DNA of 64,000 nt from Calditrichia bacterium (GCA_963777955.1 CAVZSQ010000003.1:184753-248752); one strand, 5' to 3'. Shown: positions 1-64,000, counted from the stretch's first letter. A program made the numbers and translations. Notes: generated by a model from the sequence alone, not told the origin.

Positions 1-1545
1 CGTTCAATGAGTCCCCTGATTTCGATAAACATTTCCAGAAATTTGTCGAACTCCGCTTTCAGGGTATGCATCAATCCCGGATCCGCTTGCTGTTGAGTTC
101 GTAAGCTGGCTAATAATTCTTCCAGGGCATGTGCCTGCCTGGCGATGAAATCCAGTTCCAGCATGCCGGCATTCCCTTTGACGCAGTGCACGGAGCGATA
201 GATCTCGTCAATGGCGCCCGGGAGGAAGTCAGACACCAGCAGTTCCTGCACATGTGATAATTCTTCGTTGGAACTGCGCATAAATTCGTCCAGCATCTGG
301 CCGTCCACGTTGAGTATGGCAAAAAGCCATTCCATCTGCCGTTTGCTCTGCTCTTTTGACTTTTCAAGATTTCTGGCCAGCTCGACCTGTTGGGTTATAT
401 CGTTGGCCGAAACGATGATTTCATTGATAATTTTATCTGTCTCGATGCGACGAAAATTAAAGGTGAGGTATTTGGTTTGAACCTGGTCGTGATCAGTCCG
501 TATCCGCAACTTTATTTCATTGAGCGGATTTAGATTTTCCATTGTGGTTTCATCGACCCCGGGATCGAAAAGCAGTTTCAGATAATCACCGCAGGTTAGA
601 AAGATTTTTTCTTCGATTTTATCCCGCAGGTAGTCAATTATATTTATTCCGGCCAGGGATTTACGAGCGAAGATCTCTTCCAGGGCGGACGAATACTGGG
701 AAGCGATCGCATAGTTCCGGTCAAGTAAAAACAATCCGTCCTTGACATTGTTCAAAATATTATCGGTATCTTTCTTTGCCGTAATCAGGTCCAAATTGCG
801 TTGCTGCAGCCGCTCTTCAATTTTTTTTCTTTCTTTTAATTCATCCTGCAGGTGCTGGAACAAGCGGGCATTCTCGATGGCGATTGCCGCCTGATTGGCG
901 ATAGTGGTAAGTAAATTGATATGTTCTTCCTGGTAGACATGATCGTAATTGTAACTTTGGACCACCAGAGCGCCAAGCGCTTTGCCGGCATAGATCAGCG
1001 GAACGCCGGCGCAGGCTTTGGCTTTTTTGTCTCCGGACACAATTCCCAGGGTCCGGTAGGTTTTCTGCGGATCGCTCTTAATCAGGAGGGGTTTTTGAGT
1101 GCGGATTATATATTCCGTACGGCCATTAGCAAATTTTCTGGTGATTTCCTCTTCGCGCTGCCGGCGGCCGTTCAGAACGTCAAAAATAACCTCTAATTCA
1201 TTGCGGGTAGAATCGTACAGGGCTATATAGAAGGCGGATACTTCCATGATGCGGACGGTCTGGTTGTAAATCAGTTCGATGAGTTCATTGATATCGATCG
1301 CCGAACTCAGAGCCCGCCCGATTTCATTTAAGGTGGCCAGGTCCTGTATGCGCTGGTGGAGGGTTTCTGCTGTTTCTTTTTCCTTTTCGATTTCCAGCAG
1401 TAAGGATTTGGTTTTCTGATTTACTTCTTTGGCAAATTTCTGGCGTTGATCTTTAAGTATCCTGATCCGGGATCGTAAAAGTATCCAGACCACCGGAATG
1501 GCGATGAACAGCAGGGCGACAAGAATCCAACCATGAATTGTCATA
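1..1545 (-). CDS. Signal-transduction protein with N-terminal TM helix, GAF-like domain, coiled coil and HPt (histidine phosphotransfer) domain; the C-terminus runs off the window start. It is not in the ORF track because no stop falls inside the window.
   Basis: Manual reverse-complement translation from the ATG at 1543-1545 gives MTIHGWILVALLFIAIPVVW (TM) ... GAF-like stretch (ALGALVVQSYNY..LLTTIANQAAIAIENARL) ... SVHCVKGNAGMLEL (HPt HxxKG motif, CheA-P1/ArcB-like). The frame stays open to position 1. Confidence 0.6.
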
Positions 1546-1730
1546 CAAGTCTGCTCTTTATAATGATTATGAACTTAATTCAAAAACTACATCTGGTATC
1601 TATATTCGTATAAAGATACAAATATTTTAATAAATATTGAAAATAATTCTAACTGCGCCCGGGGGTTGATGATTAATTCTATGATCGGGAGTATATTTCG
1701 CGGTGGGGAAGAATGAATCGGCAGATGTGA

Positions 1731-2273
1731 TCAATCGTGTTCGAAGATATAGCCGAGCCGGTGATTAAGCGGGTTATCCGGTTCACAGTCATCCCAACGA
1801 TCGCCGATGAGACCTCCGGCCTTGAAGAAGCGAAGGCGATTCTGATCGATATTACCAAGATCGCCGGGCTGACCGGTCTCCCAGTTGGTGTAAACAAAGG
1901 GTTCGTCAGTGACCCACCGCCAACCCTCGTCCGGTCCCTGGGCACCGTCTGGCTGATATCCTCCCAGCCATGGACCCAGCCCGTTATCAAAGGCGTCGAG
2001 GAACCAAAAAGCGCTATCGTCTTTAACCAGGCTGAAAACAAAGGCATTCTCTGGCGCAGAGGTGATTGTCACCAGATGACCGCCGCGGGCAAGGCAACTG
2101 TCTTGGGCCTGATCCCATGACAAGCCTGGTGCCAGCACTGCTTCATAGCAATGGCCGTTACCCCACTGCACCGTTCCAGCCGGACAGTCTGTATCAGCAG
2201 GGTTAGTGGAGTCTTCAGCGCAGCTGACCAGCATGAACAGGAACAGTCCCGGAATGCAGATAGTTTTCCACAT
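1731..2273 (-). CDS. Lipoprotein with a C-type lectin-like domain
   Basis: ORF-track entry 1731..2372; the likely start is the internal MWKTICIPGLFLFMLVSC (signal peptide plus lipobox LVSC). CTLD-like motifs WTDEPFVYTNW, WDDCEPD, LGYIFE. Confidence 0.55.
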   Translation of the reverse strand: MWKTICIPGLFLFMLVSCAEDSTNPADTDCPAGTVQWGNGHCYEAVLAPGLSWDQAQDSCLARGGHLVTITSAPENAFVFSLVKDDSAFWFLDAFDNGLGPWLGGYQPDGAQGPDEGWRWVTDEPFVYTNWETGQPGDLGNIDQNRLRFFKAGGLIGDRWDDCEPDNPLNHRLGYIFEHD

Positions 2274-5313: not shown

Positions 5314-7125
5314 ATGACAACTCTGGATTATGCAATCGTCGTGGTTTACTTAGTCGGCATGGTTTTTATCGGATTCTATCATCAGCGCAAGGCTTCCAAA
5401 GGTATCGATTCTTATTTTCTGGCCGACCGCGGTTTACCCTGGTGGGCGCTGGGTGCTTCCGGTATGGCTGCTAACCTGGACGTCAGCGGCACCATGATCA
5501 ATACTGCCTTCATCTTTGCCCTGGGCGCCAGCGGATTTTTTATCGAGATCCGGGGCGGAGTTACCCTGATCCTGGCCTTCCTGATGATCTTCCAGGGAAA
5601 ATGGAACCGGCGCGCCCTGGTCATGACCCTGGCCGAGTGGATGCATTTCCGCTTTGGCAAGGAAAGACAGGGGGATGTGGCCCGGCTGATCGCGGCGATT
5701 TCCATCATCATAGTCACTATCGCGATGATTACCTATTTTGCCATCGGCTCGGGTAAATTTATCGGTGAATTTCTGGGCATCCCTGCTTTCTGGGGACTGT
5801 CTTCCGAATTCTGGGCAGCCATGCTGATGATCGTATTATCCATGATCTACACGGTGGCCAGCGGTCTGTATGGTGTGGTCTGGACCGATGTGGCCCAGGG
5901 GGTACTGATTTTTGCCATGATTTTTGTAGTCTGCTTTCTGGCTTTTGTCAATTTCAATCTTCCCGATACTTTTCAGGTTTCGGTACCACTGCGTGATGGC
6001 GGATTCATGGCTTTAAATACGACTAAAGAAGCCTGGACCAGTGTAATTCCATCCTGGACCCTGGATATGCCGGAACAGTCCATGTACTCGATTTATAATT
6101 TATTCGGTATAGCCATTTTATTCTATTTATTGAAAGTCACCATTGAAGGCAGCGGCGGAACGAGTCAATATATGGTTCAGCGTTTCTTCGCCTCGCGCAG
6201 CGACCGTGAATCAGGTCTGCTCACTTTATTCTGGACTTTTTTATTGTCATTCCGCTGGCCGTTTATCGCTTCAATCGCCGTGATGGGTGTGGCCTGGGGA
6301 GTAACCCAGGGGGTAATCGCCGATCCGGAAACAGTGCTGCCATCGGTGGTCAATCGCATGGTGCCGCTTGGTTTGAAAGGATTACTGGTGGCCGGACTGA
6401 TGGCGGCGGCAATGTCGACATTCTCGCCGACAGTCAATGCCGGTGCCGCCTACTGGGTCAAAGATATTTATCAAACTTACCTCAATCCAAAAGCTACCGA
6501 AAAGCAATTATTACTCCACAGCCGCTGGTCCTCCATCATAATTGTAGCCTGTGGATTATTCTTTATGCTGGCGATAAGAAATATAAATGAAATCTGGGGC
6601 TGGATCACCTCCAGCCTGGGGGCGGGGATGCTGATCCCGACTCTGGCCCGCTGGTACTGGTGGCGGATGAATGGTTATGGATTCGCCGCCGGAACGGTTG
6701 CGGGCATGGGGGTGGCAGTAATCCAGAAAATATTCCTGCCGGATATACCCGAATATTTTTCCTTTATCATAGCCACGGTCTCTTCATTGCTGGGTATGAT
6801 TATCGGAACCTATGCGGCCAAACCGACCGATGAGCAAGTTCTGCTGGAGTTTTATAAACGCACCCGTCCATTTGGATTCTGGGGTCCTGTCCGCCGAAGG
6901 ATTCCCCAGGAAACTATGGCCAAGATAAACAAAGAAAATCATAGAGATATTCTTTCCACTTTCTTTGCCGTACCCTGGCAAATCGTGCTGTTTTTAACCG
7001 GCATGACTTTTATTATGAAGCGCTGGGATCAGTTTGTGTGGATCCTGGGGGCGCTGATAATTCTTTCGGTAGCCCTTTATTTCAACTGGTTCCGCCACCT
7101 GTCCAAGGAGGTTAAAGTAGACTGA
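5314..7125 (+). CDS. Sodium:solute symporter family (SSF) transporter, probable sugar uptake
   Basis: 603 aa with about 13 predicted TM helices. The N-terminus MTTLDYAIVVVYLVGMVFIGFY...KGIDSYFLADRGLPWWALGAS is typical of SSF/SGLT transporters. The TGA stop overlaps the next ATG (ctgATG). Confidence 0.75.
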   Translation: MTTLDYAIVVVYLVGMVFIGFYHQRKASKGIDSYFLADRGLPWWALGASGMAANLDVSGTMINTAFIFALGASGFFIEIRGGVTLILAFLMIFQGKWNRRALVMTLAEWMHFRFGKERQGDVARLIAAISIIIVTIAMITYFAIGSGKFIGEFLGIPAFWGLSSEFWAAMLMIVLSMIYTVASGLYGVVWTDVAQGVLIFAMIFVVCFLAFVNFNLPDTFQVSVPLRDGGFMALNTTKEAWTSVIPSWTLDMPEQSMYSIYNLFGIAILFYLLKVTIEGSGGTSQYMVQRFFASRSDRESGLLTLFWTFLLSFRWPFIASIAVMGVAWGVTQGVIADPETVLPSVVNRMVPLGLKGLLVAGLMAAAMSTFSPTVNAGAAYWVKDIYQTYLNPKATEKQLLLHSRWSSIIIVACGLFFMLAIRNINEIWGWITSSLGAGMLIPTLARWYWWRMNGYGFAAGTVAGMGVAVIQKIFLPDIPEYFSFIIATVSSLLGMIIGTYAAKPTDEQVLLEFYKRTRPFGFWGPVRRRIPQETMAKINKENHRDILSTFFAVPWQIVLFLTGMTFIMKRWDQFVWILGALIILSVALYFNWFRHLSKEVKVD

Positions 7126-8394
7126 TGTTTCGGGGCAGGAAAGATCATACAGGATTATTCATCAGGATCGCCGGGATTTTACTAGGCTGCCTGATTTTAT
7201 CCTTATTATCCTGCCAGCACGACGCTAAAAAGAGAATGATCGTCTGGACCTCCTTCCGGCCGGTGGAAAGGGAATACCTGCAACAGGAATTGGATGAATT
7301 CGGTGCGAAATTTCCGGATTATACCTTCAGCCAATTGTTCTATGCACCGGAGGAGTTGCGTACTAACTTCAGTATAACTGCTCTGGCCGGGAAAGGACCG
7401 GCGCTGATACACTATGCCAGTGATATCATCGGTCCCTTGTCGGAGCTGCAGGTCATACGGCCTCTGGAAGATATTTTTGATGCTCAGTTTTTGTCTGAGT
7501 TCATCCAACAACCTATTGTCGCCAATACGATTTTTCAGGGACATCTGTACCAAATTGCCGACCGGGTCGGAAACCATCTCTGCCTGGTTTACAACAAGAC
7601 GATGATCAATCCGCCGCCAAAGAGCATGCGCGAATTAATCAGCCGCGGCAAGGATCTGGTCAAAGACGTAAATAGTGATGGCCGCATTGATTATTATGCC
7701 CTGGCCTGGAATTATACCGAACCGGCTTTTGCTGTTCCGTTTATCGGCGGCTATGGCGGTTGGATCATTGATCAGAATAACCGGCCGACGCTGAATACTC
7801 CGGCAGTACGGCAGGCAGCGCAGTTAATCTATGACCTGGCCAATAAATACAAGATCATCCCGGCCGAGTGCGACTATGAAACAGCTGAATGCGCTTTTTA
7901 TGGACGGGCGGGTGGCCATGATCATAAACGGTCCCTGGTCCTGGGGAACCTATCTGAAAAGCGGTATCGATATTGGACTGGCCCGCATACCTAAAATCGA
8001 TCAAACCGGTCTATGGCCTTCACCCATGGTTTTTCCGATGGGTTATTGTGTAAACATCAATTTGAAAGGCCGGGACCTGGAAGTTGCCAGAGAACTGGTA
8101 ATACATTTGACCTCGGCACGGGTACAAATGAAATTAGCCCGGGAATTCAGGATCATTCCTTCGCGCACGGTGGAAATGAACAGCGCTGAACTGCGCCGGG
8201 ATGAATTGTTCGTGAATAATGTTGACCAGATGATGGTCGGCAAGCCAATGCCGGTGATAACCGAGATGCGCTGGATCTGGGATGCCATGCGTCCGGCCTA
8301 CCAGGGTATTTTCACCAACCAGATTTCACCGCAACAGGCGGCTGCGGAGATGCAGCGCCTGGCTGAAAAATTAATTGCTGAAAACCGGGAATAA
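7125..8394 (+). pseudogene. malE: MalE-like ABC maltose/maltodextrin-binding lipoprotein, split by a +1 frameshift in a T5 run (7895-7899). It is either a pseudogene or a sequence error.
   Basis: ORF 7125..7994 (lipobox LLSC ... DYETAECAF) and ORF 7831..8394 (MDGRVAMIINGPWSWGTY...) together match the MalE pattern [24 protein letters not shown]. Deleting one T of ttttt restores ...ECAFMDGRVAMIINGPWSW... Confidence 0.75.
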
Positions 8395-11076: not shown

Positions 11077-12412
11077 ATGGGTGCTGCAGGGATTCAGAAC
11101 GAAATAATCAGGAAAAAATATTTTCTGGGTATTGAATCCGATCAGAAACAGTACGGAACATTACCCGGCCGCAGGCCTCCGGCCTGGGTGAATGAAGGTC
11201 CGCTTTATGAAGTGTTTGTCAGGAATTTCAGCAAAACCGGGGATCTGAACGGGCTCACAGAAAAGATTTCCTACCTGAAAGAACTGGGCATCAAAACTAT
11301 CTGGTTGATGCCGCTGCAGCCCATCGGCCGGACCGGGCGGAAGGGTAAATTGGGTTGCCCGTATGCTATCCGCGATCATCTGGCGATCAATCCACACTAT
11401 GGTTCGGATAAGGATCTGCGCAAACTGGTTTCTGTATTACATGCGGCTGATATGCGCTTGATTATTGATCTGGTCATCAACCATGGCGCGCTGGATCATG
11501 TTCGTGCAAGGACCCATCCGGCCATGTTCAGGCATGACCGGCAGGGACGTTTTACCAGGAAAATTGCCGACTGGTCGGATGTGATCGATTTTGATTACAG
11601 CAGTACGGATACCCGTAAGTACATGCTGGAGGTGATGTCGTACTGGATCAGGGAATTTGATATCGACGGGTACCGCTGTGATGTGGCCGGTATGGTACCG
11701 CTGGATTTCTGGGAAACGGCGCTGGAAAAAATGTTAAAAATAAAATCAGATATTTTTATGCTGGCCGAATGGCAGCGGCCCAGACTGCACCTGCAGGCTT
11801 TTCAGGCTAGCCTATGACTGGGTCACCTATCTGGTGCTGAAAGATATTTATCAGGGTAAACGACCGGCAGCGGACATTTTACGATGGCTGAACGAGAGGC
11901 AAAAACTTTATCCGCAAAATGCCCTGCCATTATTATTTACTGAAAATCATGATTTTCCCCGGACCCCTGCGGTATTTGGCCGCCGGAGTTTTTATCCTTT
12001 TGCGGCTTTGCTATTTGCCATAGCCGGTATACCGCTGTTATATAACGGACAGGAATCCGGCCTGAAGAAAGGAATTTCATTATTTGACCACGATCCAATC
12101 CTGTGGGAAAACCAGAATCAGACTATCTATGATTTTTATAAAAATTTGATCCGTTTGCGCCGTGATAATGCAGCCCTGGCTTCGCAGAATATTAAAGTGT
12201 TAAAAAATGATAAGACCGGGAGTGTGGTTACATTTTTAAAATCAGCAGGTAACGATGAAGTGCTGGTAATACTGAATTTCAGTTCGCAGCGGACAAAAAT
12301 AAAAATATCGCTTCCTGCGCAATATCACATCCGGGAATGGCGGAATTTATTAAATACCAGAATTGTTAAAAAAGGACAGGAATCTGGCCGGCATGGAGTT
12401 AAAACCGTATGA
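11077..12412 (+). pseudogene. Cytoplasmic GH13 alpha-amylase, split by a frameshift at a T4 run (~11799-11802)
   Basis: ORF 11077..11817 carries region I DLVINHGA, region II GYRCDVAGMVP and region III MLAEWQ. ORF 11834..12412 carries region IV FTENHD. Frame 2 reads ..RLAYDWVTYLVLKDIYQG through the junction, which is amylase-like. Confidence 0.75.
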
Positions 12413-12500
12413 GGTGTCGATGTGGAAGCGGTTCCCCTCGACTCCGCTCGGGGAACGGAACGCCGGTCATCGAGCGAAGTCGAGATGACTAATAATCCAC

Positions 12501-12579: not shown

Positions 12580-15571
12580 ATGATTCATACAAAGATTATA
12601 ATAGCAACTATATTTTTTATTACCGGCCTATTGCAGGCCCAGGTGGTCACCTCCATTCCAACTTATGCTACTGCGCATGATTCTGTGATCATTCTTTTCA
12701 ATGCTGCCGCAGGCAATCAGGGCTTAATGGGCTACGCCGGAACGGATGTTTATGCTCATACCGGAGTGATTACCGACCAGAGTACCTCGCCGGGCGACTG
12801 GAAATATGTTGTTGCCGGCTGGAGTGAAAATTTAGCCAAAGCGAAGTTGACCGAAATTGCTACCGATCTCTGGCAACTGACCATCGGTGATATATACGCT
12901 TATTATGGAGTTCCTGAGAATGAAAAAATATTACAGTTGGCTTTTGTTTTCAGAAATTCCGGAGGCACTTTGACCGGCCGTGACGTGGGCGGAGCAGACA
13001 TCTTTCTGGATTTATATGAACCTGGCATAACTGTAGTAATTATAAATCCCGCTATTAATTTGCAATATACCGATCCGCTCCGCACTCCGGCATTTGTCGG
13101 TACAGGAGCGACCCTGTCCATCCGGATAACCAGCGCCCAGATCGGCACACTGCTTGATTCCTTATTTCTTTTTAAAGCGGATACTTTATTGACCGCTGCC
13201 GCCGGGGATACTTTAAACTATGATTTTATTGCTGATGATTTTTCCAGCGGCCCGAATCTGTTATCGGCAGTAGCCCGCGATACCAGCGGCCTGGCCGATA
13301 CCACAGAATTTTATGTAGTGGTCAATCCTGTACCGGAAAATATCTCGCGACCAGCCGGGATCCGCGATGGAATTAACTATATTGATTACAATACAGTTAC
13401 TTTATCGCTTTTTGCTCCCTACAAAAGTTATGTATATGTATTGGGTGACTTTAATGACTGGAAAGTCGATGCTGATTATTATATGAAGCGGGACGAAGTC
13501 GACAGCGATAGCATACATTGGTGGATCACTATAGACGGATTAGTACCAGGAAATGAATATGCCTTTCAATACCTGGTCGACGGTGAACTCAGAATTGCCG
13601 ATCCTTATACGGAAAAGGTTCTGGACCCCTGGAATGATTCTTATATCTCTCCGGTCACCTATCCCTTTCTTAAATCTTATCCGGCCGGCAAGACCGGTGA
13701 GATTGTTTCGGTATTGGAAACCGGGCAGTCGTCATTTGACTGGATTTATACTCCTGCATATCAGCGTCCGCCACAGCAGGAAATGGTCATCTATGAGTTA
13801 CTGCTGCGTGACTTTTTATATGCTCATGATTTTACCACCTTGCAGGATACACTGGATTACCTGGACAGCCTGGGGATCAACGCCATCGAACTGATGCCGG
13901 TCAATGAATTTGAAGGTAACAGCAGTTGGGGGTACAATACTTCTTTCTATTTTGCAGTCGACAAGTATTACGGTCCGGCCAATGATTTGAAACAGTTTAT
14001 CGATGAATGCCACCGCCGCGGGATCGCAGTTATTTTAGATATGGTATTGAACCATTCCTTTGGCCAATCACCGTTAGTCAGATTATATACGGATGATCAT
14101 GGATATCCATCTAATCAAAATCCGTGGTATTATCCTGATTATAATCCAAATTTTGAAGGCTATCAGTCCCGTCATCCGTATAATGTAGGATATGATTTTA
14201 ACCATAATTCGATAGCCACTCAAAATTTAGTTGATAGAGTAAATTCTTTTTGGCTTCAAGAATATAAAATAGATGGATTCAGGTTTGATCTGACCAAGGG
14301 ATTTACGGGTAAATCAACTTATCTATACAGTAAATATGAAAATGATCGTATAGTAGATGTATATAATGAAAGTGAAGCCAGTAATTATGATGTCAATAGA
14401 GTAACTTTACTAAAACGTATGGCCGATATGATTTGGGCTGCGGATTCATCAGCTTATGTTATCCTGGAACATTTTGCGGCTAACAGCGAGGAGACCGAAT
14501 TATCCAGCTACGGAATGATGCTGTGGGGCAATCTGAATTATAACTATAATGAAGCGACCATGGGGTATCATAAAGATGGTTCCACTTACGGCAAATCTGA
14601 TTTTTCCTGGGGATTTTATAAAACACGGGGATGGTCCGAAGCGGGCGTAGTTACCTATATGGAAAGCCATGACGAAGAAAGACTGATGTACAAAAATCTT
14701 ACTTACGGGAACTCATCGGGGAATTATAATATAAAAAGTCTGGAAACAGCATTGAACCGGATGAAGCTGGCCTCGGCATTTTTTCTTACTTTGCCCGGTC
14801 CCAAAATGCTGTGGAAACACAGCGAACTGGGTTATGATTATTCCATCGAGTATAACGGCCGGCTGGCCGAAAAACCGATTCGCTGGAATTATTTTCAGGA
14901 TCCGCTGCGGAAAAAGTTATACAAAACCATCCAGGCCCTGTTAAAGTTAAGAAATGAGAATGAAGTTTTTCGCAGTACGGAGACGATTGTCGATCAACAG
15001 GTTGTTTATGAAACCAAAAAAATACGCTTTGCCCATCCCACGATGAATGTGGTGATCATCGGTAATTTTGATGTAGACTACTTTATCTATAGATCCAAAT
15101 TTTTATCACAGCGGGTACTGGTACGATTTCTTCAGCGGTGACAGTATGCTGATCAGTGATAACAATGCCCTGATTGAACTGTTGCCGGGCGAGTTTCATA
15201 TCTACAGCGATAAAAAATTACCCACCCCTGAAGAGGATATCCTTAATAGTATTGAAGCACCGCTGGTAAAAAATATTTCCGACTTTACTTTATGGCAAAA
15301 TTACCCGAATCCCTTCAATCCCGTAACAACCATTTCTTTTCAAATTCCGGGTCTAGCTGATGTGACACTGAAAATATTTGATCTGTTAGGACGGGAAGTA
15401 ACAACTCTGATCGATAACAGGAAGATAACCGGTTCTTTCACTGTGCAATGGGATGGACGTGACAACGGCGGGCAGCTGTTAAGCAGTGGAATTTATATTT
15501 ATAAAATCGAGGCCAGGACAAGGGGTAAATTACTTTTTGAACAAAGTCGCAAGATGATTTTATTGAAGTAA
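12580..15571 (+). pseudogene. Large secreted GH13 enzyme (N-terminal domains plus CBM48-like, GH13 catalytic and T9SS C-terminal sorting domain), split by a 1-nt indel near 15076
   Basis: Signal peptide. CBM48-like GDFNDWKVDADYYMKRDE..WWITIDGLVPGNEYAFQYLVDG. GH13 regions VILDMVLNHSF, GFRFDLTKGF, YMESHDEE. ORF 15146..15571 holds the T9SS domain LWQNYPNPFNPVTTISFQIP...IYIYKIEA. Removing g15076 gives GNFDVTTLSIDPNFYHSGYWYDFFSGDSM, which reads continuously. Confidence 0.75.
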
Positions 15572-19909: not shown

Positions 19910-21161
19910 TTAATATTTCTTTATTAAAGTTGTTCCGGGAAAATATTTACTGATAATATGATAGTAGCGAAAAGACCTGGCGGCCGACATATTCATGGCG
20001 CCGTACTGGCACATACCCGCACCGTGTCCGTATCCGGCACCGTGGATTCCCAGGGTGGTATCGTCCGGTTGGGAGAAAAAGAACAGGGTACTGCGCAGAT
20101 AAGGTTCACGGTCGGTCGCGAAAAACCGGCGGATCTCATAACTGCTCAATTCGACGGTTGTATCGCCGTAAGTGATTTCCAGTCTGTTCGATACGGCCGC
20201 TGCCGGAGCGTTGTTTCACCCGCAGGTCGAATTGTAAGTACATGGTGTCGGCAGTTGGTCCCATTTGCCCCGCCTGTAAAAGACTTCGTCCATAATTGCT
20301 GTAAAAACTGCTGTCTAATTGTGCCAGGGTGCGGGTTTCCCGCCAGCGGAAAAAGGGAGAAGAACTGCAGGAAAATGTATCGCTGATGGCATCGATTCCC
20401 CCGCTGAGATAGGGGGCATTTATTGAAGGCCAGATCCGGTTGGCCGGTTCCAGGCGGCCCCCGCAGGTCGAGTGATAGAATATATCAGCCAGTTCCCCCT
20501 GATAGGTAATACAGATACCCCGGGTTTCGGCAATGGCCCGGTCAGCCAACTCGGTATGCCGGTCAAAGCCTGCATATACCTGATCGACGATGGTGTTTTC
20601 CAGATTATAAGGACGATTTTGATTCTCGCCGGCCTGGATACGTTTTAAAGCGTATGTTCGCGAACAAACGGCCTGGGCTTTCATGGCCTCAAAATACTGA
20701 GTGCGGATTGTATTGATCTCTGCGGGAAGCACCCCTTTCAGATATTCCTCCAGAGGCAGTTCGTTGATCAGATATAAAACAGCGTCTGCGGCGGGAGCAA
20801 ACAGGATTGTGCCGCTGTATTCCTGGCCTCTGAAAACAAAGCGCCCTGTAGCGGTTGCCGGTTCCAGACGGATCGGGAAGTAATTCCGGTACAGCAGATT
20901 GCGGTTCTGATTGTACAACTGTATGCCGGACTTCAGCGGTACAATGTTTAACTGTTGATTACGTTCGCCGAATTCATAATGTGCTTCTTCGGATTGTAAA
21001 ACGTAGAGACTGCGGAAGTACAGGCTGTCATTTTCCGCTAAAGTAGCCAGTAAAACACGAATCAGCGGATCCGCTTGCGGAATATTTTTTTTAGTTTGTG
21101 GAAAACAACCGGCCGCGCTAATCACCAGTACGAGTAAAAAAACCCTCAACTTCTTTAACAT
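19910..21161 (-). pseudogene. SpoIID/LytB-family amidase-enhancer homologue, split by a 1-nt indel near 20180-20190
   Basis: ORF 20136..21161 (..YHSTCGGRLEPANRIW..) plus ORF 19910..20149 (..GIHGAGYGHGAGMCQYGA..). The second frame stays open upstream (..SNRLEITYGDTTVELSSYEIRRFF) and overlaps the first. Confidence 0.7.
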
Positions 21162-26682: not shown

Positions 26683-28456
26683 ATGACGCACTGAAGGGAG
26701 TCGCTCATTTTTCGTACGTTTGCTTATCTTAAGCCATATCTGTTGCGTTATAAGTATAAGTTGCTGTCCGGCATTCTTTTTACCGTCATCAGCAATGCCG
26801 TAAGCATTCTATACCCCAAGGTCGTTCAAAAGTCTATTGATTATCTCGCTCACGAAATAGAAGTCAGACAATTGTTGTTGTACAGCGGATTGATTGTACT
26901 GATTGCAGCGGTGCAGGGATTTTTTCGCTTTTTGATGCGGCAAACCATTATTGTCGGTTCGCGCTTGATCGAGAATGATTTTCGCAATGATCTGTTCGGG
27001 CACCTGCAGAAAATGTCGGCCACTTTTTTCCAGAGCATGCCCACCGGCGATGTCATGTCGCGAATGACCAATGATCTTAGTGCGGTACGCAGTGTTTTGG
27101 GGCCGGGGATTATGTATTCGGCCAATACGATCTTCACCCTGGTTTTTGTAGTGGCGATGATGCTTACGATCAATCCGCTGCTGACCCTGATCGGATTTTT
27201 ACCCATCCCTTTGATCGCTTACTCCGTCTATCGTTTTGGTATGCAAATTCATAAAAGATATAAAGAGATCCAGGCACAATATTCCAGGATCAGCACCAAG
27301 GCCCAGGAAAACCTTTCCGGAATCCGGGTGATTAAATCCTATGTGCAGGAAGCGCATGAAATTATCGAGTTCAACAAATTGAACAAGGAATATGTCGATA
27401 AGAATATGGCCTTTGTGCGGGTCTATGCCGCCTTCCACCCGATGTTGATGTTTATTATCAGCCTGGGCATCATCCTGGTGCTGCTGGTAGGGGGAATTCA
27501 GATTGTAGACTGAGACAATTTCATTGGGAGAATTCGTAGCCTTCACCCTGTATCTGGCCATGCTGGTCTGGCCGGCGATTGCCCTGGGCTGGGTGGTCGG
27601 CATCTTTCAACAGGGGGCTGCGTCCATGGAACGGATCAATGTTATTCTGGACACCCAGCCTGAGATCCATGATGATCCACAGGCCGTGCCGCTAACAACT
27701 GTTCAGGGCGATATTCAGATAAAAAATCTTACCTTCGGCTATAATGGCGGCAGCAGGCCGGTTTTAAAGAATATTAATATTGATCTGCCCGCCGGGAGTA
27801 TCCTGGCCATAGTGGGCCGGACCGGCAGCGGGAAAACGACGATCATGAATTTGCTGACCCGCACCTATGATCCGCCGGAAGGAACAGTATTCATTGACGG
27901 CCTGGACATCAAGAAGATTCCTTTGCACATATTGCGTCTGCATACCGGATACATTCCGCAGGAAACTTTTCTGTTCTCGGATACCATTAAAGCAAATATT
28001 ACTTTTGGCCTGCCTGCCGGCAGTGATGAAAAAGTTATGGCCGCGGCCCAGGCGGCCCAGATCCACGATACAATCATGGAATTCGCTGATAAATATGAGA
28101 CCCTGCTGGGCGAGCGGGGTATTAATTTATCCGGCGGACAAAAACAGCGGGTCTGTATCGCCCGGGCCATCATTAAGGAACCGAAAATCCTGCTGCTGGA
28201 CGATGCGCTGTCAGCGGTCGATACTATAACCGAGGAAAAAATCCTGGAAGGTTTGCGTACGGTAATGCAGAACAGGACCTGTATCTGGATTTCGCATCGG
28301 ATCTCCGCTATTCAGAATGTCGACCAGATCATCGTACTGGATGAAGGGGGGATTGCCGAGCAGGGGACGCACCAGGAACTGCTGGCCCTGGAAGGGCTTT
28401 ATGCCGACCTTTATGAAAAACAAAAACTGGAAGAAGCACTGGATCAGGTTGAATAA
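26683..28456 (+). pseudogene. MsbA-like ABC exporter (TMD-NBD fusion) with an in-frame TGA near the N-terminus (26692) and a 1-nt indel near 27511 separating the TMD from TM6/NBD
   Basis: Frame 1: ATG(26683) ACG CAC TGA then RESLIFRTFAYLKPYLL.., an MsbA-like N-terminus. ORF 26743..27513 is the TMD; ORF 27524..28456 has GEFVAFTLYLAML (TM6), Walker A GRTGSGKTT, signature LSGGQKQRV and Walker B LLLDDALSAVD. Confidence 0.7.
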
Positions 28457-28472: not shown

Positions 28473-29667
28473 ATGAATAAAAAACAAATATTTTGGTTCG
28501 CCTGGATAGTCCTTTCCTGCTGGTGGATAAATCCCGTCAATGGTCAAATGGATTATCGCACTGTGCACAAAGAAGCCCTGGTCGTAGATTGTCACAGTGA
28601 TGTTATTTTGCAGATCCTGCGCGGGCAGAATTTTCTCAGACGATCCGACTGGGGGCATATTGACCTGGTGCGGTTGCAGGAGGGTCAGGTCGATGTTCAG
28701 TTTTTTGCGGCCTGGCCTAATCCGGATTTGTATAAACCGGATAAGATGTATGAACAGACATTGAATTTAATTGCGCTCTTCACCAGAACCATGAGCCGCG
28801 GCCATGGTCAGATTGAATTGGCCCGTTCACCGCAGGAGATTGAACAACTGGTCAAACAGGGTAAAATAGCCGCCTGTTTGTGTGTGGAAGGGGGCAGCGC
28901 CATTGAAAATGATCTGCAAAAATTGGAAAACCTGTACAATCTGGGTGCCCGCTATATGACTTTAACCTGGATCGACAGTCCCGACTGGGCCAGTTCGGCA
29001 CAGGATGAGGTTTCTGCTGCTTACCAGGGAGTACGTGGCCTTTCCGATTTCGGCAAACAGGTGGTGCTGACCATGAACAGACTGGGGATGATGATCGATC
29101 TTTCGCACAGCGGCGAAAAAACGTTCTGGGATGTACTGCAAACTACGACCAAACCGGTGATTGCTTCGCATTCCTGTGTCTATGCACTGGCTGCGCATGT
29201 ACGCAATCTGAAAGATGACCAGATCATCGCGATCAGTAAAAACGGCGGATATATCGGTATTAATTTTTATCCCGGTTACCTGGATGTGGAATTCGAGAAA
29301 AAATACAGCCGGTTACGCAAGTCGGCGGCAGCCCACCTGGATTCGCTGAAAACAGAATTTGGCCAGAATTATACCGGGTACCGTAAATATCAGGAAAAAT
29401 ATTATCAGGAGTCTGTGCAAAGATATTCGTCCCGATCTCGCTTTGATTATCGATCATATCGAGTATGTTGTAAACCTGGTCGGGGATGATTATGTGGGAC
29501 TCGGTTCGGATTTTGATGGAATTACGATCAGTCCCCGCGGCCTGGAAGATGTCAGTAAAATGCCGGAACTCACCCGGATCATGCTGGAACGCGGTTTCAG
29601 CCGGGAGCGTATTGACAAGATTCTGGGGGGAAATTTTATGAGAGTTTTCAAGGCGGTACAGCAGTAA
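28473..29667 (+). pseudogene. Membrane dipeptidase, peptidase family M19, split by a frameshift in an A5 run (29397-29401)
   Basis: Signal peptide MNKKQIFWFAWIVLSCWW. DCHSDV, IDLSHSGE and NFYPGYL in ORF 28317..29489; VGLGSDFDGI in ORF 29359..29667. Removing one A gives ..YQENIIRSLCKDIRPDLALIIDHIEYVV.. Confidence 0.7.
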
Positions 29668-32601: not shown

Positions 32602-32631
32602 TTGACAGAGGCATCAGCTGAATAGTATATT
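32602..32631 (+). promoter_or_regulatory. Sigma70-type promoter TTGACA-18-TATATT upstream of the gene at 32658
   Basis: Read directly at 32602-32607 and 32626-32631. Confidence 0.45.
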
Positions 32632-37200: not shown

Positions 37201-37816
37201 TTATGGTGGTCTGGATCATGTGCTGGCCTCCGGCAAGAATGTCAACGTACTGGTGCTCGATACGGAAGTTTACTCCAATACCGGCGGACAGATGTCCAAG
37301 GCTACCCCCCGCGGTGCGGTAGCTAAATTTGCAGCGGGAGGTAAACCAGTCAGACGGAAAGATCTGGGTCTGCTGGCCATGACTTACGGTAGTGTCTATG
37401 TGGCCCAGGTGGCCATGGGTGCCAGCGATGTGCAAACCGTAAAATCTTTCATCGAAGCGGATGCATATAATGGACCATCCATAATCATAGCCTACAGTCA
37501 TTGTATCGCTCATGGTATAAACATGCGCCTGGGACTTGAGCAGCAGAAACTGGCGGTTGACTGCGGATACTGGCCATTATACCGCTATAATCCCGATCTG
37601 GCCAGGAAAGGCGAAAATCCGTTCAATCTTGATTCCAAGGAACCGAAAATCCCGCTGCGGGCCTATGCCTATAATGAAACCCGGTACAAAATGCTGACCA
37701 AATCGGATCCGGAGGGAGCGCAAAGATTGATCGAACTGGCGCAACTGGATGTCAATGATAAATGGAATCACTATTCGCAGCTGGCCAAAATGACTCCTCT
37801 GACCAAAGCAGAGTAA
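34255..37816 (+). pseudogene. nifJ: Pyruvate:ferredoxin (flavodoxin) oxidoreductase, single-polypeptide PFOR, split by a 1-nt insertion near 35518
   Basis: ORF 34255..35571 (..IYPITPSS.., domains I/III) and ORF 35342..37816 (..MFYGLGADGTVGANKNSIKIIG.., two 4Fe-4S CxxCxxCxxxCP motifs, TPP domain GDGWAYDIGYGGLDH). Dropping one A of gttaat joins ..SKVISSMFYGLGADG. Confidence 0.8.
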
Positions 37817-56002: not shown

Positions 56003-56083
56003 CCACGCAGGAAGTTGTCCGGCAGACTCCGCCGGAAGTCTCGTCCGGACCGCGGGTAGAAGCCCCCCTTGTGGGGGCTTTTT
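56003..56083 (+). repeat. Partial tRNA-Asp copy (anticodon loop to 3' end, T-arm carrying a hairpin insertion) plus a copy of the tRNA terminator; att-site-like
   Basis: CACGCAGGAAGTTGtccggcagactccgccggaAGTCTCGTCCGGACCGcgggtagaagccccccttgtgggggcttttt. A further remnant gaagtcttgtccggaccacg lies at 56127-56146, followed by the hairpin ccattgttgttatataacaatgg. Confidence 0.6.
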
Positions 56084-56525: not shown

Positions 56526-58860
56526 ATGGGTGACTGCATGCAAAATATTACCAAAGAAATCTTTAAGAATTCATGCCTATTATTTCTTGCTATTGTATTC
56601 TTCCCTGAATTACTTTTCTGTCAAACAGAACGAGTTGATATTTCAATTTGGCAAGAAGAGAGTGGTAGCAAACAGCTTCTTCAAAAAGGTGTACCAGTTA
56701 TATTTCCATCACAGACTTTTCATTACAATCGCAACGAGAGAGAACAATATTTATGGACGAACTCTTCGCTTGATATACAATATCAAACCATGATATCAGA
56801 TACAGGGTCTTTTCAACCTGTTTCTGGTCCTTATGGTGGAACCGTCCGGAGTATCGCTCTCGATTCTGACGGTTGGCTTTTTATTGCCACAGATGGTGAG
56901 GTCTATAGATCGAAAGATAATGGATTACACTGGGATATGAATCTTTTCCCCTCACAGATACATAACTTTGTTGAACCTGTAACCATCCTTGGTCCAAATG
57001 TGGTGGTCGCTGAAACAGATTTCGGTAACTTCATCTCAAGGGACAGGGGTGAATCCTGGAATTATTTGCTCGATGATGTACAAGGGTTTGCAGTTGATAC
57101 AACTGGGGTGATATATGCAGGGTCAAATTATGATGGAATTATGAAATCAACTGACGCAGCAAAGTCCTGGACACAATATGCATTGGCGGGAAGAAAGATC
57201 TTCAAAGTGGTCCTGTGTGGCGAAGGAAAATTCGCTTGCTATTCCGATTCGGGTATTTTCGTATCTTCTGATAATGGAATAACATGGATACTCAGACCTA
57301 AGGAGACCGGAGACACTCGGTACTTGGTGAGTGATAAACGAGGAAACCTATTTATCCTGAAATTCTTGAATGAACGCTTACAACTTTATCGTAGCAGTGA
57401 TTTTGGAGAAATATGGCAGCACATAGTTTTGCCAACATCGGGGCATGCATATCGAGTTTACGTAGAAAACGATGGGAGTCTAATTGTACCTACTACTAGT
57501 ACCCGAAAATCGTAAAGACAAAATTCTAATGTCCACTGATGCTGGAGAAACATGGAGGGAGTTGCCATTTCCTGTTGGTGCGCCTCTAACCGTAGGCAGA
57601 GATGCTACGGGGAAATTACTGGCAGGATGTTTCAATGGCATTTACAAGTATAATGATACTGATAGTGATTGGAGCGAACTTAACAATGGTATTCATGCCC
57701 GGAGGATTGACGAGATTGAGTCTACCTCTACAGGATCAATTCTTGTACTTAGCTTGGGTACATGTTTCCGAAGCACAGATTATGGAAATTGTTGGACAAG
57801 TGTGTATATTGGTGGTCCGGCCGGTGGTACATATCCACACACTCCAATTCTTTGTACATCAGGTGGAAATATTTTTATTGCAGCCGTTTTTTATGACAAT
57901 TCTGAATGCGGTCTTTTCCGCTCTACAGACGATGGTTTATCCTGGGATCGGATTTCAGTCCCCTCAAATTACTATCAAATTTCTGGAATCACCGAAGGCC
58001 CTTCAGGAGACATTTTAATATCTACTTATTTCGGCGACATCTACCGTTCCACTGATAAAGGAGATTCATGGATCAGGGTTGTTTCGAGTGCAAGCCAATC
58101 AGAAATTACATGTATCGCTTCGGATAAAATAGGGAATTACTATGCGGCAAAGGATACGTCTATACTCTTCTCTCCTGATGGAATTGTTTGGGAAGTGTTT
58201 TCTATGAAACGTAACTATTACCCTCATGAATCAATGTGTATTGATACCCGTGGAGAGATTTTCCTTGGTTCGTTGTTCGATGGAGTTTATCATTCCTCTG
58301 ATCAAGCTAGAACCTGGAACCTGATGAATGACGGCCTCATTGATAAATATGTAATAAGCACAACGGCAGACGATAGTGGGAACGTTGTCCTGGGAACATC
58401 ATCTGGGATTTTCCGTCTTGCTGATTCCATTGAAAGTTGGTCGAGTTTTAGTAATGGTTTCCCGAATACTTTCACAAAAGCACTCTCCATTTCTCCACAG
58501 GGTTATTTGTATGCGGGGACTCAAAGCTTCGGAATATATAGGAGTGTTCGTCCAATTGGAAAACGTATTCAAAAGGTCAATCCTCCTCCTATACTGGATA
58601 TTACTGAATTCAGTCTTTACCAGAATTACCCTAATCCTTTCAATGATCAAACTGTTATCCGTTATGAGGTGCCTTCTAATGCAAGGGTTGAGATCAGGAT
58701 ATACAATATTCTGGGACAGGTGGTAACTACACTCATCTCGGACGATTTGCCTGAGGGCAGTTACGATATGGGATGGACTCCAAAACAACTTTCCAGTGGG
58801 CTTGTACTTCTGCGAGATGAAAGCTTCCTCAGGTTCAAGAACATATACGAAAGTAATTAA
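56526..58860 (+). pseudogene. BNR/Ycf48-like beta-propeller surface protein with a T9SS C-terminal sorting domain, split by a frameshift in an A4 run (~57507-57510)
   Basis: Recurrent S-x-D-x-G-x-T/S-W units (SKDNGLHW, SRDRGESW, STDAAKSW, SSDNGITW, STDAGETW, STDYGNCW, STDDGLSW, STDKGDSW). C-terminal FSLYQNYPNPFNDQTVIRYEVP. Removing one A gives ..PTTSTRNRKDKILMSTDAGETW. Confidence 0.7.
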
Positions 58861-58911
58861 ACTCATGTATCTACGATGAGATGGTAGGTCGCGGAAACGT
58901 AACGGTCTATC

Positions 58912-58975
58912 TATTTCCAGGTAAAAATGACCATCATCAGGGTTCTCTGAGACCCCCATCCGCCCCGCTGGTAGA
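58912..58975 (+). repeat. ~55-nt repeat R (tttccaggtaaaaatgaccatcatcagggttctctgagacccccatccgccccg) directly after the T9SS gene. A second copy sits after the beta-helix T9SS gene at 63945-64000.
   Basis: About 90% identical to 63945-64000: tttccaggcaaatgtaacgatcatcagggttctctgtgacccccatccgccccg. Confidence 0.75.
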
Positions 58976-59010
58976 AGCCTCCCTTGTGGAGGTTTTTTAA
59001 TTTAATAAGG

Positions 59011-59093
59011 TCACGCAGGAAGTTGTCCGGGCTCCGGAAGTCTCGTCCGGACCGCTGGATAGGGTTCGTGAAGAATTATTCACGACCTTTTTT
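59011..59093 (+). repeat. Partial tRNA-Asp copy (anticodon loop to 3' end, variant T-arm insert) plus hairpin terminator; att-site-like
   Basis: tCACGCAGGAAGTTGtccgggctccggaAGTCTCGTCCGGACCGctgg, preceded by gaagcctcccttgtggaggtttttt and followed by cgtgaagaattattcacg + tttttt. Confidence 0.6.
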
Positions 59094-62900: not shown

Positions 62901-63847
62901 GTGAGGGTTCCGGACCCCTGTTTTCACATAATATGCTTCGTCCGATCGGTATAGGGGGCATTTACGTTATGAGTGCCGTTACTGAGATAACGGATAATAA
63001 AGTATTGGGAGGTGCCTATGCGGGAATCCGGAGTTGTAACAGCACGACATCCATCATTAGAAACTTTGTCCAGGGAAATAGCGATCATGGTATCGATGTC
63101 GACGGTGGCGGTAGTTCTGTGCTGACCAATAATATTCTGGTTGGTAACGGTAATGGTGTGTACAATGCGGATACTGATATTCAAATTATCAACAATACGA
63201 TAACGGATAACTCGAATTCGGGAATCATGTGTTGGGGTTCTATTACGTCACGAAAAATTAAAAACAATATTATCTGGGGTAATTATCAACCATTTTATCT
63301 TTATGGTGGCGCTGAATGGGCAAAAATCGATGCTACCTATAATGATATTGAGGGAGGTTGGGAAGGCGAAGGAAATATTGATCTGAATCCTGAATTTGTG
63401 AATGCTGAGGACGATAATTATCGTTTAGGTGAAAACTCAGCATGTATCAATGCCGGTGATCCGAATCATAAGTATAATGATAAAGATGGTTCGCGAAATG
63501 ACATGGGCGCTACAGGTGGATTGAATGGATACTATTTGATTACATCGGTTCATGATACTGCTAATATTGAGAATGCAATTCCAAAATTCTTTTCTTTATC
63601 CCAGAATTATCCCAATCCCTTCAATCCCAGCACGACTATCAGTTATAATCTCCCGGTGCGCAGTCATGTACTGCTTCGAGTGTATGATCTGCTCGGTCGG
63701 GTAGTGGCGACAATGGTGAATGAGAATCTGAATGCCGGCTCACACGCAGCATTCTGGAACGCAGCGGGCTTTGCCAGTGGAGTGTATCTGTATCGACTGC
63801 AGGCTGGGAAATACACTGAAACGAAGAAACTTGTTTTGCTGAGATAA
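59912..63847 (+). CDS. 1311-aa right-handed parallel beta-helix (PbH1-repeat) cell-surface protein with threefold internal modular duplication and a T9SS C-terminal sorting domain
   Basis: Signal peptide. Three module starts: ISGQVSGKWTKSESPYYIDDDITI..EPGVIIKF, VSGEVSGTWTVEHSPYFIQTNVVV..EPGVEVKL and FGEISGSFTKEHGPYIIGSDVTV..EPGVRLEF. Three ..NGS/GxVNMGAxGNTxEAxxSxxNAPEIL junctions. C-terminal FSLSQNYPNPFNPSTTISYNLP. Confidence 0.8.
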   Translation: MKVFRVISIIILFTIFYKTSDATINISGQVSGKWTKSESPYYIDDDITIDSGDTLIIEPGVIIKFSPGKSLFVNGTLKAIGLSEDRITFSSTQADQYWGIILFLNMDASLSELDYCLIEKASHIRDFWEWGAVSISGLRIHISNCIIQNNQNDGIWCDYQGSQPSGVQIRIMNNIIMENGEDGIFTVTEGDSVFQCQYNQILRNGRHGVQFWVANGIFTNNVVAENSGHGIFFTNSTARLNLNTIANNSSMGIYCDWNSHPIITNSIIYGNQQGSIELKQSEIEVTYTDIQDYWDGIGNITFPPQFVDPDADDYHLSPTSPCIDGGDPAADFSNEPEPNGSVLNMGAYGNTPEASQSTTNAPEILVKTPRLFFGKSANDDSVNRELVVKNLGDFMLTIDKIEFATENFSADYSTINIPPLDSATLSISFNPKGQNEIYSDTLRIYSNDINENPTLVPLEGRTGTYVSGEVSGTWTVEHSPYFIQTNVVVPAGVSLTIEPGVEVKLKPYPEWQNGALFKVYGTLIAVGSPEDSIYFTRMEDNGWWGAILFQDASNDCRMEYCSVSYGSGTQVGSYSDYAAVFCYNSAPAIKNSLFIYNIYGISIREYYGGNKAVIMNNLFVYNMESGVNNEVLNTVIKNNIMHHNGTGISCMERAVIANNTIVNNTTGIWLSGYSKSLVKNCIIWNNSTNIEDLNIDWAGAVEVKFCDVQGGWSGYGNLDMNPLFVNADLNDYHLLPLSPCIDGGDPIDDCTLEPVPNGGIVNMGAFGNTLEAAPSPDNAPEILITQPMIDFGLLATNQQDSSLVTIRNIGTSPLNIMNIVLDNSSFSCVWEQTEIAPDDSINIWIYFQSPTEGTFLDTLWLYNNDLSEGISFVLLQAKTTSALFGEISGSFTKEHGPYIIGSDVTVPAAATLTLEPGVRLEFMAKASLFVYGTLNCVGTEEDSIIFTTHTDQQYWGSIYFGLESDDSKMQYTVVEYGKGYGKYIGSFFGAAVSLIACEGSGPLFSHNMLRPIGIGGIYVMSAVTEITDNKVLGGAYAGIRSCNSTTSIIRNFVQGNSDHGIDVDGGGSSVLTNNILVGNGNGVYNADTDIQIINNTITDNSNSGIMCWGSITSRKIKNNIIWGNYQPFYLYGGAEWAKIDATYNDIEGGWEGEGNIDLNPEFVNAEDDNYRLGENSACINAGDPNHKYNDKDGSRNDMGATGGLNGYYLITSVHDTANIENAIPKFFSLSQNYPNPFNPSTTISYNLPVRSHVLLRVYDLLGRVVATMVNENLNAGSHAAFWNAAGFASGVYLYRLQAGKYTETKKLVLLR

Positions 63848-64000
63848 GGAGATAGTAATTACCAAAAAGCTTTCCTCATACAAAAACCTTTCTTCTACTG
63901 ATTACCCCCTTCGGAGTAGAGATACCTTGGAGGGGGTATTTTACTGTTTCCAGGCAAATGTAACGATCATCAGGGTTCTCTGTGACCCCCATCCGCCCCG

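Follow-up and report, generated by a model that had tools for sequence, protein, structure and literature searches.

Single-base insertions, mostly at AGCT, split eight conserved genes in a Calditrichia contig and are most likely assembly errors

The window, i.e. the whole stretch of 64,000 nt analysed here, contains eight conserved genes whose reading frames are broken by single surplus bases. Since each break amounts to one spurious base, mostly located at the palindrome AGCT, assembly errors are most likely and the apparent gene loss is not real; we are confident, though not certain, that the frame-breaking indels are artefacts and that the real genes of the organism are unbroken. This conclusion is based on a contig of 99.9% identity that lacks the insertion in the M19 dipeptidase gene, on unbroken relatives, on downstream fragments that are not relaxed, and on a lesion spectrum of +1 insertions alone, which is not a natural one.

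Frame-breaking insertions in eight genes

The eight split genes of the original prediction are genuine features of the deposited sequence, in which the members of each ORF pair carry complementary Pfam halves and together yield one architecture per gene. It had also been proposed that adding or removing 1 nt restores each gene; indeed, removing one base merges each pair into an uninterrupted ORF, but adding a base is never the repair, and the downstream frame corresponds to the upstream frame +1 in all eight genes. We found ten frame-breaking indels in coding sequences, compared to eight flagged before, with a second one in the cytoplasmic GH13 gene and in the BNR gene. Each of the ten is a +1 insertion, deletions being absent (two-sided binomial 0.002); neither nonsense codons nor IS elements are among the lesions of the split genes, and no internal stops are left in the repaired ORFs. 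Together with one intergenic site, at least 11 extra single bases are present in the comparable sequence, which amounts to about 38 kb. Several of the breaks have short homopolymer runs nearby, within 10-25 nt.

The gene for a MalE-like sugar-binding protein (7125..8394, + strand; SBP_bac_1/8 Pfam halves, 422 aa repaired) contains an extra base at 7886/7887 (ACAGCT[G]AATG). Six JGI contigs read ACAGCC-AATG at this site with an unchanged T5 run, and the orthologues P0179/P0180 comprise 422 aa with 91-96% identity; the T5 run at 7895-7899, which had been named before, is thus the wrong site. The gene for a cytoplasmic GH13 enzyme of the alpha-amylase family (11077..12488, + strand, 469 aa once repaired) carries two extra bases, the first in the centre of AG^CT at 11811/11812 (CTAG[C]CTATG) and not in the T4 run near 11800, the second in the gene tail at 12383 (GGAA[T]CTGG). 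At these positions the contig L170 (94% nucleotide identity) reads CTAG-CTATG and GGAA-CTGG, and L082 agrees at 12383. Repair at 12383 results in ELAGMELKPYEV, with the counterpart ELANIELKPYEV in P0002, an uninterrupted orthologue of 460 aa. In the sister species, the cytoplasmic GH13 has mostly been lost for real, and a remnant of 142 aa is present.

The secreted GH13 protein, which harbors a CBM48 and a T9SS C-terminal domain (12580..15571, + strand; Pfam halves, 996 aa repaired), has an unbroken orthologue of 969 aa in the sister species. Its extra base lies somewhere in 15075-15086, the simplest placement being an A at 15077 (GTAG[A]CTAC). This junction was placed with a chimeric junction query, for which the protein matches did not exceed 73% identity though relatives of 90-96% exist. 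The homologues P0063/64/68/69 show GNFDV..(S/K)IDPNF at the junction; therefore, the frame switch precedes IDPNF and the T5 run at 15100-15104 is ruled out. The SpoIID/LytB-like gene (19910..21161, - strand, 416 aa repaired) contains an extra base at 20183, which reads CCAG[T]CTG on the + strand and CAG[A]CTG on the coding strand. Here L169 (93%), L082, L085 and L175 all read CCAG-CTG, and the orthologues P0006-P0009 are unbroken (404-432 aa).

The most direct comparison was possible for the M19 membrane dipeptidase (28473..29667, + strand, 397 aa repaired), which carries an extra T at 29412 (CAGGAG[T]CTGTGC). The Logan contig L172 from run ERR12040022 is 99.906% identical to the window over 2,124 bp, and the single gap is this extra T. 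The A5 run at 29397-29401, the wrong site, is the same in L172 and the window. Another Logan contig of the same run, L001, shows 99.87% identity to the window. At the M19 site, L089 reads ...QEKYYLNLCRNIRPD, and homologues follow the upstream frame across A5. L172 could in principle originate from a co-occurring strain with an unbroken M19 gene. This is the one site of ten that was checkable at near-identity, the other nine being compared with relatives at 75-96% identity.

In the gene for pyruvate:ferredoxin oxidoreductase (PFOR; 34267..37816, + strand, 1182 aa repaired), the extra base is located at 35521, TTAAT[C]AGCTCAATG, which corresponds to AGCT[G]ATT on the opposite strand. The L175 sequence is AAT-AGTTCGATG (N S S M) here, with an unbroken PFOR of 1181 aa, and the PFOR protein P0040 (1186 aa) shows ...GVNRSMFYGLGADG at the junction. 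Another protein, P0037 (762 aa, start MFYG), at first seemed to show the PFOR break independently but was rejected, as it merely reflects a contig edge. An intergenic extra G at 32620 (32620..32620; CAGCT[G]AATAG) shares its 9-mer context with the malE site, and L175 reads CAACC-AATAG there. Exact-protein look-ups for the 32620 site and for the 27509 site of the ABC exporter gave no match.

The gene for a BNR/Sortilin-repeat protein with a T9SS C-terminal domain (56526..58879, + strand, 783 aa repaired) contains an extra C in the CCC run 57502-57504, the A4 run being the wrong site, and a second extra base, a T at 58802/58803 (GGGC[T]TGTAC), in the C-terminal sorting domain. In the unrepaired ORF the Por_Secre_tail Pfam match is truncated, and repair brings back the canonical tail ...SSGLYFCEMKASSGSRTYTKVIKLMYLR. 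L171 (93%) reads TA-ACGAAAAT and GGGC-TGTAC at the two sites; since this contig is itself error-prone, with frameshifts of its own at 57198, 58391 and 58730, it supports the BNR sites only in part.

The original prediction attributed the breaks to homopolymer-biased errors of a long-read consensus, with miscounted runs of T5, T4, A5 and A4. The runs next to several breaks would fit this explanation, and the extension of a 1-2 nt run is conceivable for no more than three insertions (11811, C to CC; 57504, CC to CCC; 58802, T to TT), but the other seven of the ten are not run extensions. The four runs named in malE (T5), the cytoplasmic GH13 gene (T4), M19 (A5) and the BNR gene (A4) have equal lengths in relatives, so that the homopolymer explanation fails, and run lengths are likewise the same in the 99.9% Logan contig. 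Moreover, the M19 homologues stay in the upstream frame through A5, and IDPNF of the secreted GH13, which lies 5' of T5, is already in the downstream frame. The usual homopolymer error is a deletion, and the window shows zero deletions among its indels. From this we consider miscounted runs a very unlikely cause.

The exporter and the flagged TGA codon

The MsbA-like ABC exporter (ABC_membrane + ABC_tran; 26701..28456, + strand, 584 aa repaired) contains an extra base at 27509/27510 (GTAG[A]CTGAG), where the two open frames overlap by 2 nt only. Its orthologue in L089 is a stop-to-stop frame of 594 codons with 82% amino acid identity, and the orthologue in L175 comprises 584 aa (94%). An in-frame TGA at 26692-26694 had additionally been interpreted as a lesion affecting a ninth gene. 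However, this codon lies outside the CDS, in the 5' leader of the exporter (leader/start region 26692..26703, + strand), as an upstream in-frame stop three codons 5' of the codon aligned with the TTG start of the unbroken 584-aa orthologue. In L175 itself, an in-frame TGA precedes the TTG start by four codons. Because the TGA is situated in the leader and is also present in the unbroken L175 orthologue, it is not a lesion. The window codon 26701-26703 is TCG where the sister species (L175) has the TTG start; counted from this TCG, the repaired ORF has 584 aa, which is the length of P0186, and the N-terminus of P0186/P0188 is LLIFRTF.

A restoration of the proteins in vivo, by programmed +1 ribosomal frameshifting, transcriptional slippage or recoding of TGA, would be in line with the +1 shift needed at every break. 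Nevertheless, the sites lack a common slippery or stop-codon motif, TGA is the terminator of 5 of 30 long ORFs and the flagged TGA is in the leader, and the orthologues are encoded in a single frame, which means that the shift is not conserved; we regard the probability of such recoding as negligible.

Two further candidates were rejected. The SPFH pair 54250-55239 / 53199-54416, with AGACT in its overlap, was considered as a ninth split gene, but repairing it yields no homologous junction, and a separate start (MKYFQL...) is present in the downstream ORF. The ORF-poor region 1-1700, considered as a shattered gene, harbors one unbroken sensor gene on the minus strand that runs off the window edge.

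Intact orthologues and the AGCT signature

The original prediction had suggested a comparison with orthologues from sister genomes, and in these the eight genes are indeed unbroken: each is a single ORF, in full synteny, in relatives at 75-96% identity (L082-L088, L089, L169, L170, L175, P0002, P0006-9, P0040, P0179-83 and P0186). A scan of genome contigs with IspH yielded relatives at only about 60% identity, and a metagenome scan with IDH led to the contig L089. In six genes the identity of the downstream fragment is equal to or higher than that of the upstream fragment, e.g. 95.0% compared to 93.8% for PFOR, relative to the L175 protein, and 94.0% compared to 90.4% for M19.

These observations bear on the possibility of a real and recent pseudogenisation in a decaying genome, or of frameshift alleles at the strain level. 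The deposited contig and the proteins called from it both contain the indels, and in the sister species most of the cytoplasmic GH13 gene is genuinely gone, as its 142-aa remnant documents. However, an unbroken M19 allele exists in a sequence of 99.9% identity, conservation is not relaxed 3' of the breaks, and all lesions are +1, with deletions, nonsense codons and IS elements absent. In addition, the lesions are motif-specific and their signature appears again in nanopore MAGs of other species, the central-metabolism gene PFOR is hit, and about one lesion per 3.5 kb would knock out a large share of the genes, which leaves genuine gene decay highly improbable. With regard to the cause, the view that consensus error is favoured over pseudogenisation is therefore supported, but the proposed homopolymer bias is not, as the dominant context is the palindrome AGCT.

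Five of the insertions are centred in AG^CT (11811, 15077, 20183, 27509 and 29412), with a joint chance of about 4e-10. For three of these sites the DNA alignment provides proof, with AGCT in the relatives where the window has AGCCT (11811), AGTCT (20183) and AGTCT (29412); AGACT is also located within the switch windows of the exporter (2 nt) and the secreted GH13 (12 nt). A second class, AGCT[G]AWT, comprises two CDS insertions (malE and PFOR) and the intergenic one at 32620, and the window contains five AGCTGAWT sites, of which three carry the extra base. Three insertions are located away from AGCT (12383, 57504 and 58802). Between 39 and 57 kb, 18 AGCT sites are found without a frame break.

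AGCT itself is depleted in the window, with 70 observed vs 163 +/- 12 expected sites. The ratio of observed to expected sites is 0.45 in the window and 0.41-0.62 in Illumina-derived relatives as well as L002/L003, compared with 0.88-1.04 in unrelated loci. This depletion across the lineage suggests that AGCT is the target of a restriction-modification system and is itself modified. An AGCT methyltransferase was not found within the window. Two other Calditrichia MAGs, L002 (MFD03804) and L003 (MFD09779), carry frameshifts at AGCT sites of different genes, namely ATGAG[T]CTAC and CCAG[C]CTGAA, which are consistent with the AGCT signature of the window. The genomes closest to the source contig are nanopore-only MFD MAGs, and MAGs of this project were built exclusively from nanopore reads, with Flye as the assembler and a single Medaka 1.8.0 round (PMC12313526). 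The source MAG is most likely a long-read, nanopore-only assembly as well.

Under the consensus-error reading, the extra base would be placed either in the centre of AGCT (AG[N]CT) or as a G following AGCT before A(A/T)T. If AGCT is the restriction-modification target of the lineage, the bases would be modified on both strands, and the basecaller or polisher could misread the altered pore signal as an additional base at roughly 10% of the sites, a call that modest coverage would favour. We lean slightly towards such a DNA modification of AGCT as the cause. The nanopore errors that have been linked to methylation in publications are mostly substitutions, and on R10.4.1 no type of read error is rarer than insertions (bioRxiv 10.64898/2026.01.14.699587). 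Errors at AGCT that consist of insertions only thus do not belong to the documented error modes, and no report of AGCT-specific insertion errors was found in the literature searched.

The AG[N]CT insertions could also represent true in vivo scars, in which an AluI-type enzyme makes a blunt cut at AG^CT and end-joining by Ku/LigD adds one nucleotide. Bacterial NHEJ adds single nucleotides to blunt ends, the extra base is found exactly at the AluI-type cleavage position at five window sites and probably at two more in L002/L003, and AGCT is avoided lineage-wide. The scar is absent from the Logan contig, though, the scenario accounts neither for the AGCT[G]AWT class nor for the three insertions outside AGCT, fixation in essential genes would be lethal, and neither a Ku/LigD gene nor an AGCT endonuclease was seen in the window, so that we give this scenario even less credit than gene decay. 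In a milder version, an undescribed bulky modification of AGCT may lead to the extra base via the nanopore signal.

Consequences and comparison with known systems

If the breaks are consensus errors, PFOR, maltodextrin uptake and degradation, SpoIID, the exporter and the dipeptidase should be treated as intact in metabolic reconstructions, with nothing lost. Nanopore-only MAGs of this lineage would then contain about one false frameshift per 3-4 kb, and such frameshifts split genes, inflate pseudogene counts and fragment protein catalogues. Gene halves have already been deposited as separate proteins, some of them as cluster representatives. Since the error is not of the homopolymer type, it will be missed by homopolymer-aware filters; its motif-specific signature makes a rule-based correction possible. 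Indirectly, the signature also hints at a modification system of Calditrichia that targets AGCT; if the scar reading were true, it would be the mutational footprint that a restriction-modification system has left across the genome in this group.

The many frameshifted conserved genes resemble the situation in decaying genomes. Such genomes, for instance those of obligate symbionts or pathogens, are characterized by mixed lesions, deletion bias, relaxed constraint and IS expansion, whereas none of these marks is found in the window. A likeness also exists to the indel errors of unpolished or lightly polished nanopore metagenome assemblies, in which dense single-base indels split conserved genes and are absent from short-read-derived sequence of the same organism or its sisters; these errors occur in Flye + Medaka MAGs (PMC12313526; see also PMC9262707 and proovframe). 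However, the classical nanopore error is a homopolymer deletion, while the window contains insertions only, with correct homopolymers and mostly at one 4-nt palindrome. Nanopore errors at methylation motifs are similarly tied to a motif, with one short palindrome being hit repeatedly in different genes and genomes, but they are documented mainly as an A/G substitution bias, in contrast to the extra base in AG^CT, for which the underlying modification would be a putative one.

Frame breaks in eight genes of the window

The window has a GC content of about 46% and is gene-dense and Calditrichia-like; among species-representative genomes it comes closest to two Calditrichia MAGs from the Microflora Danica (MFD) project, with about 60% amino-acid identity. 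It encodes a cluster for maltodextrin uptake and degradation (GH13, SSF symporter, MalE/F/G, TrmB, a second GH13 and a secreted GH13 with a T9SS domain) as well as IspH, SpoIID, GlgC, an ABC exporter, an M19 dipeptidase, isocitrate dehydrogenase, PFOR and others. The ORF listing misses a long ORF of sensor type (1-1600, minus strand), which has an HPt-like motif at its C-terminus and leaves the window at the left edge, so that this region falsely seems ORF-poor. Independent DNA for comparison, collected by exact look-ups and from cluster listings, comprised JGI contigs of a sister species (L082-L088, about 87% nucleotide identity, 5.3-20.2 kb; L175, 87-90%, 18.2-38.9 kb in full synteny), two further JGI contigs (L170, 94%, 8.6-12.6 kb; L089, 75%, 25.4-31.7 kb), two ENA contigs (L169, MEGAHIT-style name, 93%, 19.8-22.0 kb; L171, 93%, 55.4-59.4 kb) and two Logan contigs from run ERR12040022 (L001, 99.87%, 9126-10694; L172, 99.906%, 28857-30980).

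The gene splits do exist in the deposited sequence, and in all eight genes the ORF pairs named in the original prediction are complementary pieces of a single domain architecture. According to that prediction, adding or removing one nucleotide would reconstitute each gene. Full ORFs were indeed regained, but adding bases was never needed: in 8/8 cases the frame changes by +1 from the upstream to the downstream ORF, from which we conclude that the window holds one base too many per break. Deleting one base per site yielded uninterrupted ORFs with lengths equal to those of the orthologues. Two further frame-breaking insertions, at 12383 and 58802, were found by comparison with relatives, which brings the coding-sequence indels to ten in eight genes, all of them +1 insertions (binomial 0.002). 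Programmed frameshifting has next to no probability as an explanation, since the orthologues lie in a single frame.

The in-frame TGA at 26692, previously flagged as a lesion of the ABC exporter gene, does not interrupt it. The orthologues P0186 and P0188 (584 aa, 94% identity) start with LLIFRTF, and the gene as called in L175, from the sister species, begins at a TTG aligned to window codon 26701-26703, with an in-frame TGA four codons upstream; the TGA is therefore merely the 5'-bounding stop of the ORF. TGA is an ordinary stop here, terminating 5 of 30 long ORFs. The window reads TCG instead of TTG at 26701-26703, so that the deposited gene call begins 14 codons later, at 26743, while the repaired ORF from this codon has exactly 584 aa. 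The TCG may be due to a substitution error or may be genuine.

Positions of the extra bases

Alignment with relatives placed the extra base (in square brackets; a dash marks the gap in the relative) in malE at ACAGCT[G]AATG versus ACAGCC-AATG, in the cytoplasmic GH13 at CTAG[C]CTATG versus CTAG-CTATG and, near the gene end (12383), at GGAA[T]CTGG versus GGAA-CTGG in L170 and L082, in spoIID at CCAG[T]CTG versus CCAG-CTG (in four relatives), in the M19 gene at GGAG[T]CTGTG versus GGAG-CTGTG, in PFOR at AAT[C]AGCTCAATG versus AAT-AGTTCGATG, and in the BNR/T9SS gene at TACC[C]GAAAAT versus TA-ACGAAAAT. The second BNR site (58802, GGGC[T]TGTAC) lies in the T9SS sorting domain, and removing its extra base brings back the canonical ...SSGLYFCEMKASSGSRTYTKVIKLMYLR tail of the protein. 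In the ABC exporter, the open frames share only 2 nt, which lie inside GTAG[A]CTGAG, and for the secreted GH13, comparison with homologues narrows the switch to 15075-15086, a stretch that holds GTAG[A]CTAC. The homopolymers to which the indels had been attributed (T5, T4, A5, A4) are equally long in the relatives, so this attribution was wrong; contradicted at each site, homopolymer error is very unlikely. The original observation is largely right, although its positions and the TGA need correction.

The ENA contig L171, which bears a Flye-style name (contig_103617), has frameshifts of its own elsewhere in the same BNR gene (window 57198, 58391 and 58730: one A too many, a G run longer by one base and a 4-nt gap), which indicates that public collections also hold error-prone relatives. 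Two tRNA-Asp-like elements of about 110 nt each (55480-55590 and 55702-55810, plus strand) precede the real tRNA-Asp (55885-55960) and occur in L171 as well. They retain the 5' end of the acceptor, TTAGAGCACCTG and the anticodon stem with GTC, while hairpin insertions replace the D-loop and T-arm and a further segment of about 26 nt is added; neither ARAGORN nor Rfam called them. Incomplete copies of the 3' half, accompanied by a terminator hairpin (55993-56080 and 58959-59055, plus strand), are located on either side of the BNR/T9SS gene.

Consensus errors or gene loss

The strongest evidence for an artefact is L172, which differs from the window over 2,124 bp by one substitution and one gap, the gap being the extra T of the M19 gene; the M19 gene is thus intact in an organism that is all but identical to the source. 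Furthermore, every Illumina-style relative carries the eight genes unbroken, and conservation towards the sister species is as high after each break as before it (upstream and downstream identity: PFOR 93.8% and 95.0%, ABC exporter 94.8% and 94.6%, M19 90.4% and 94.0%, malE 85.4% and 89.9%, SpoIID 89.3% and 91.1%). The lesions are all +1 insertions, and the absence of deletions, nonsense codons and mobile elements among them is unlike natural decay, and their density of about one per 3.5 kb would disable a large share of all genes, PFOR included. Real pseudogenes or strain alleles are therefore very improbable. Frameshifts consistent with the same signature are found in the MFD MAGs, the window's nearest relatives in the genome collections, which are nanopore-only assemblies made with Flye and a single Medaka 1.8.0 round (PMC12313526). 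Taken together, these sequence comparisons indicate that the indels are very probably consensus errors, as originally proposed, albeit by another mechanism; biologically, the split genes are not a real feature.

A genuine deletion of about 930 bp has reduced the cytoplasmic GH13 of the 87% sister species to a 142-aa C-terminal remnant (L082 8025-8699, same region in L083-L087); the full gene is kept in the window (11077-12488) and in L170. Artefactual gene halves from the window's contig are stored as separate proteins (clusters of P0001, P0004, P0044, P0045 and P0175), several as representatives of 90% clusters, and P0001 stands over the full-length member P0002.

AGCT sites as a putative source of the insertions

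Five of the ten coding-sequence insertions place the extra base at the centre of AG^CT (class I), and at three of these five the relatives read AGCT at the exact spot. AGNCT centres make up 0.24% of window positions, and the joint chance of five such sites is about 4e-10, allowing for the sites' uncertainty windows. Class II, AGCT[G]A(A/T)T on one strand, covers malE, PFOR and an intergenic insertion (32620); an extra base falls at 3/5 occurrences of this 8-mer within the window, a count of less weight because the motif was derived after the sites were seen. The insertions at 12383, 57504 and 58802 lie outside AGCT. Frameshifts consistent with the same type occur at other AGCT sites of this gene cluster in the two MFD MAGs, which represent other species (one each: MFD03804, ATGAG[T]CTACTGG in the cytoplasmic GH13; MFD09779, CCAG[C]CTGAAAT in SpoIID), as inferred from protein alignment to within 2-4 nt.

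AluI-type enzymes leave blunt ends at AG^CT, and one nucleotide can be added in bacterial end-joining, so that class I insertions, which sit where such a cut falls, could be repair scars. L172 speaks against this, as do the insertions of class II and those outside AGCT, and the fact that essential genes are hit; this origin is even less probable than gene decay.

AGCT occurs 70 times in the window, compared to 163 +/- 12 expected from dinucleotide-preserving shuffles, and reaches 0.41-0.62 of the Markov expectation in Illumina-derived relatives (L175, L082, L084 and L089 included) and both MFD MAGs; unrelated loci in the same scan lack depletion (0.88-1.04). Such depletion typically marks the target of a restriction-modification system. 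An AGCT-specific system of this kind is therefore suggested for this Calditrichia lineage, and its host would modify AGCT on both strands. The modified palindrome may disturb the pore signal and be rendered as an extra base, which would explain the insertion position, its recurrence across species and its absence from short-read-derived sequence. We slightly favour this modification as the cause. Caution is due because the published nanopore errors that are linked to DNA modification consist mainly of substitutions, with insertions being the rarest read error on R10.4.1 (bioRxiv 10.64898/2026.01.14.699587), and no report of an AGCT insertion error mode was found in the literature searched. The value of the split genes lies in a quality warning and in an indirect hint that AGCT is modified in Calditrichia.
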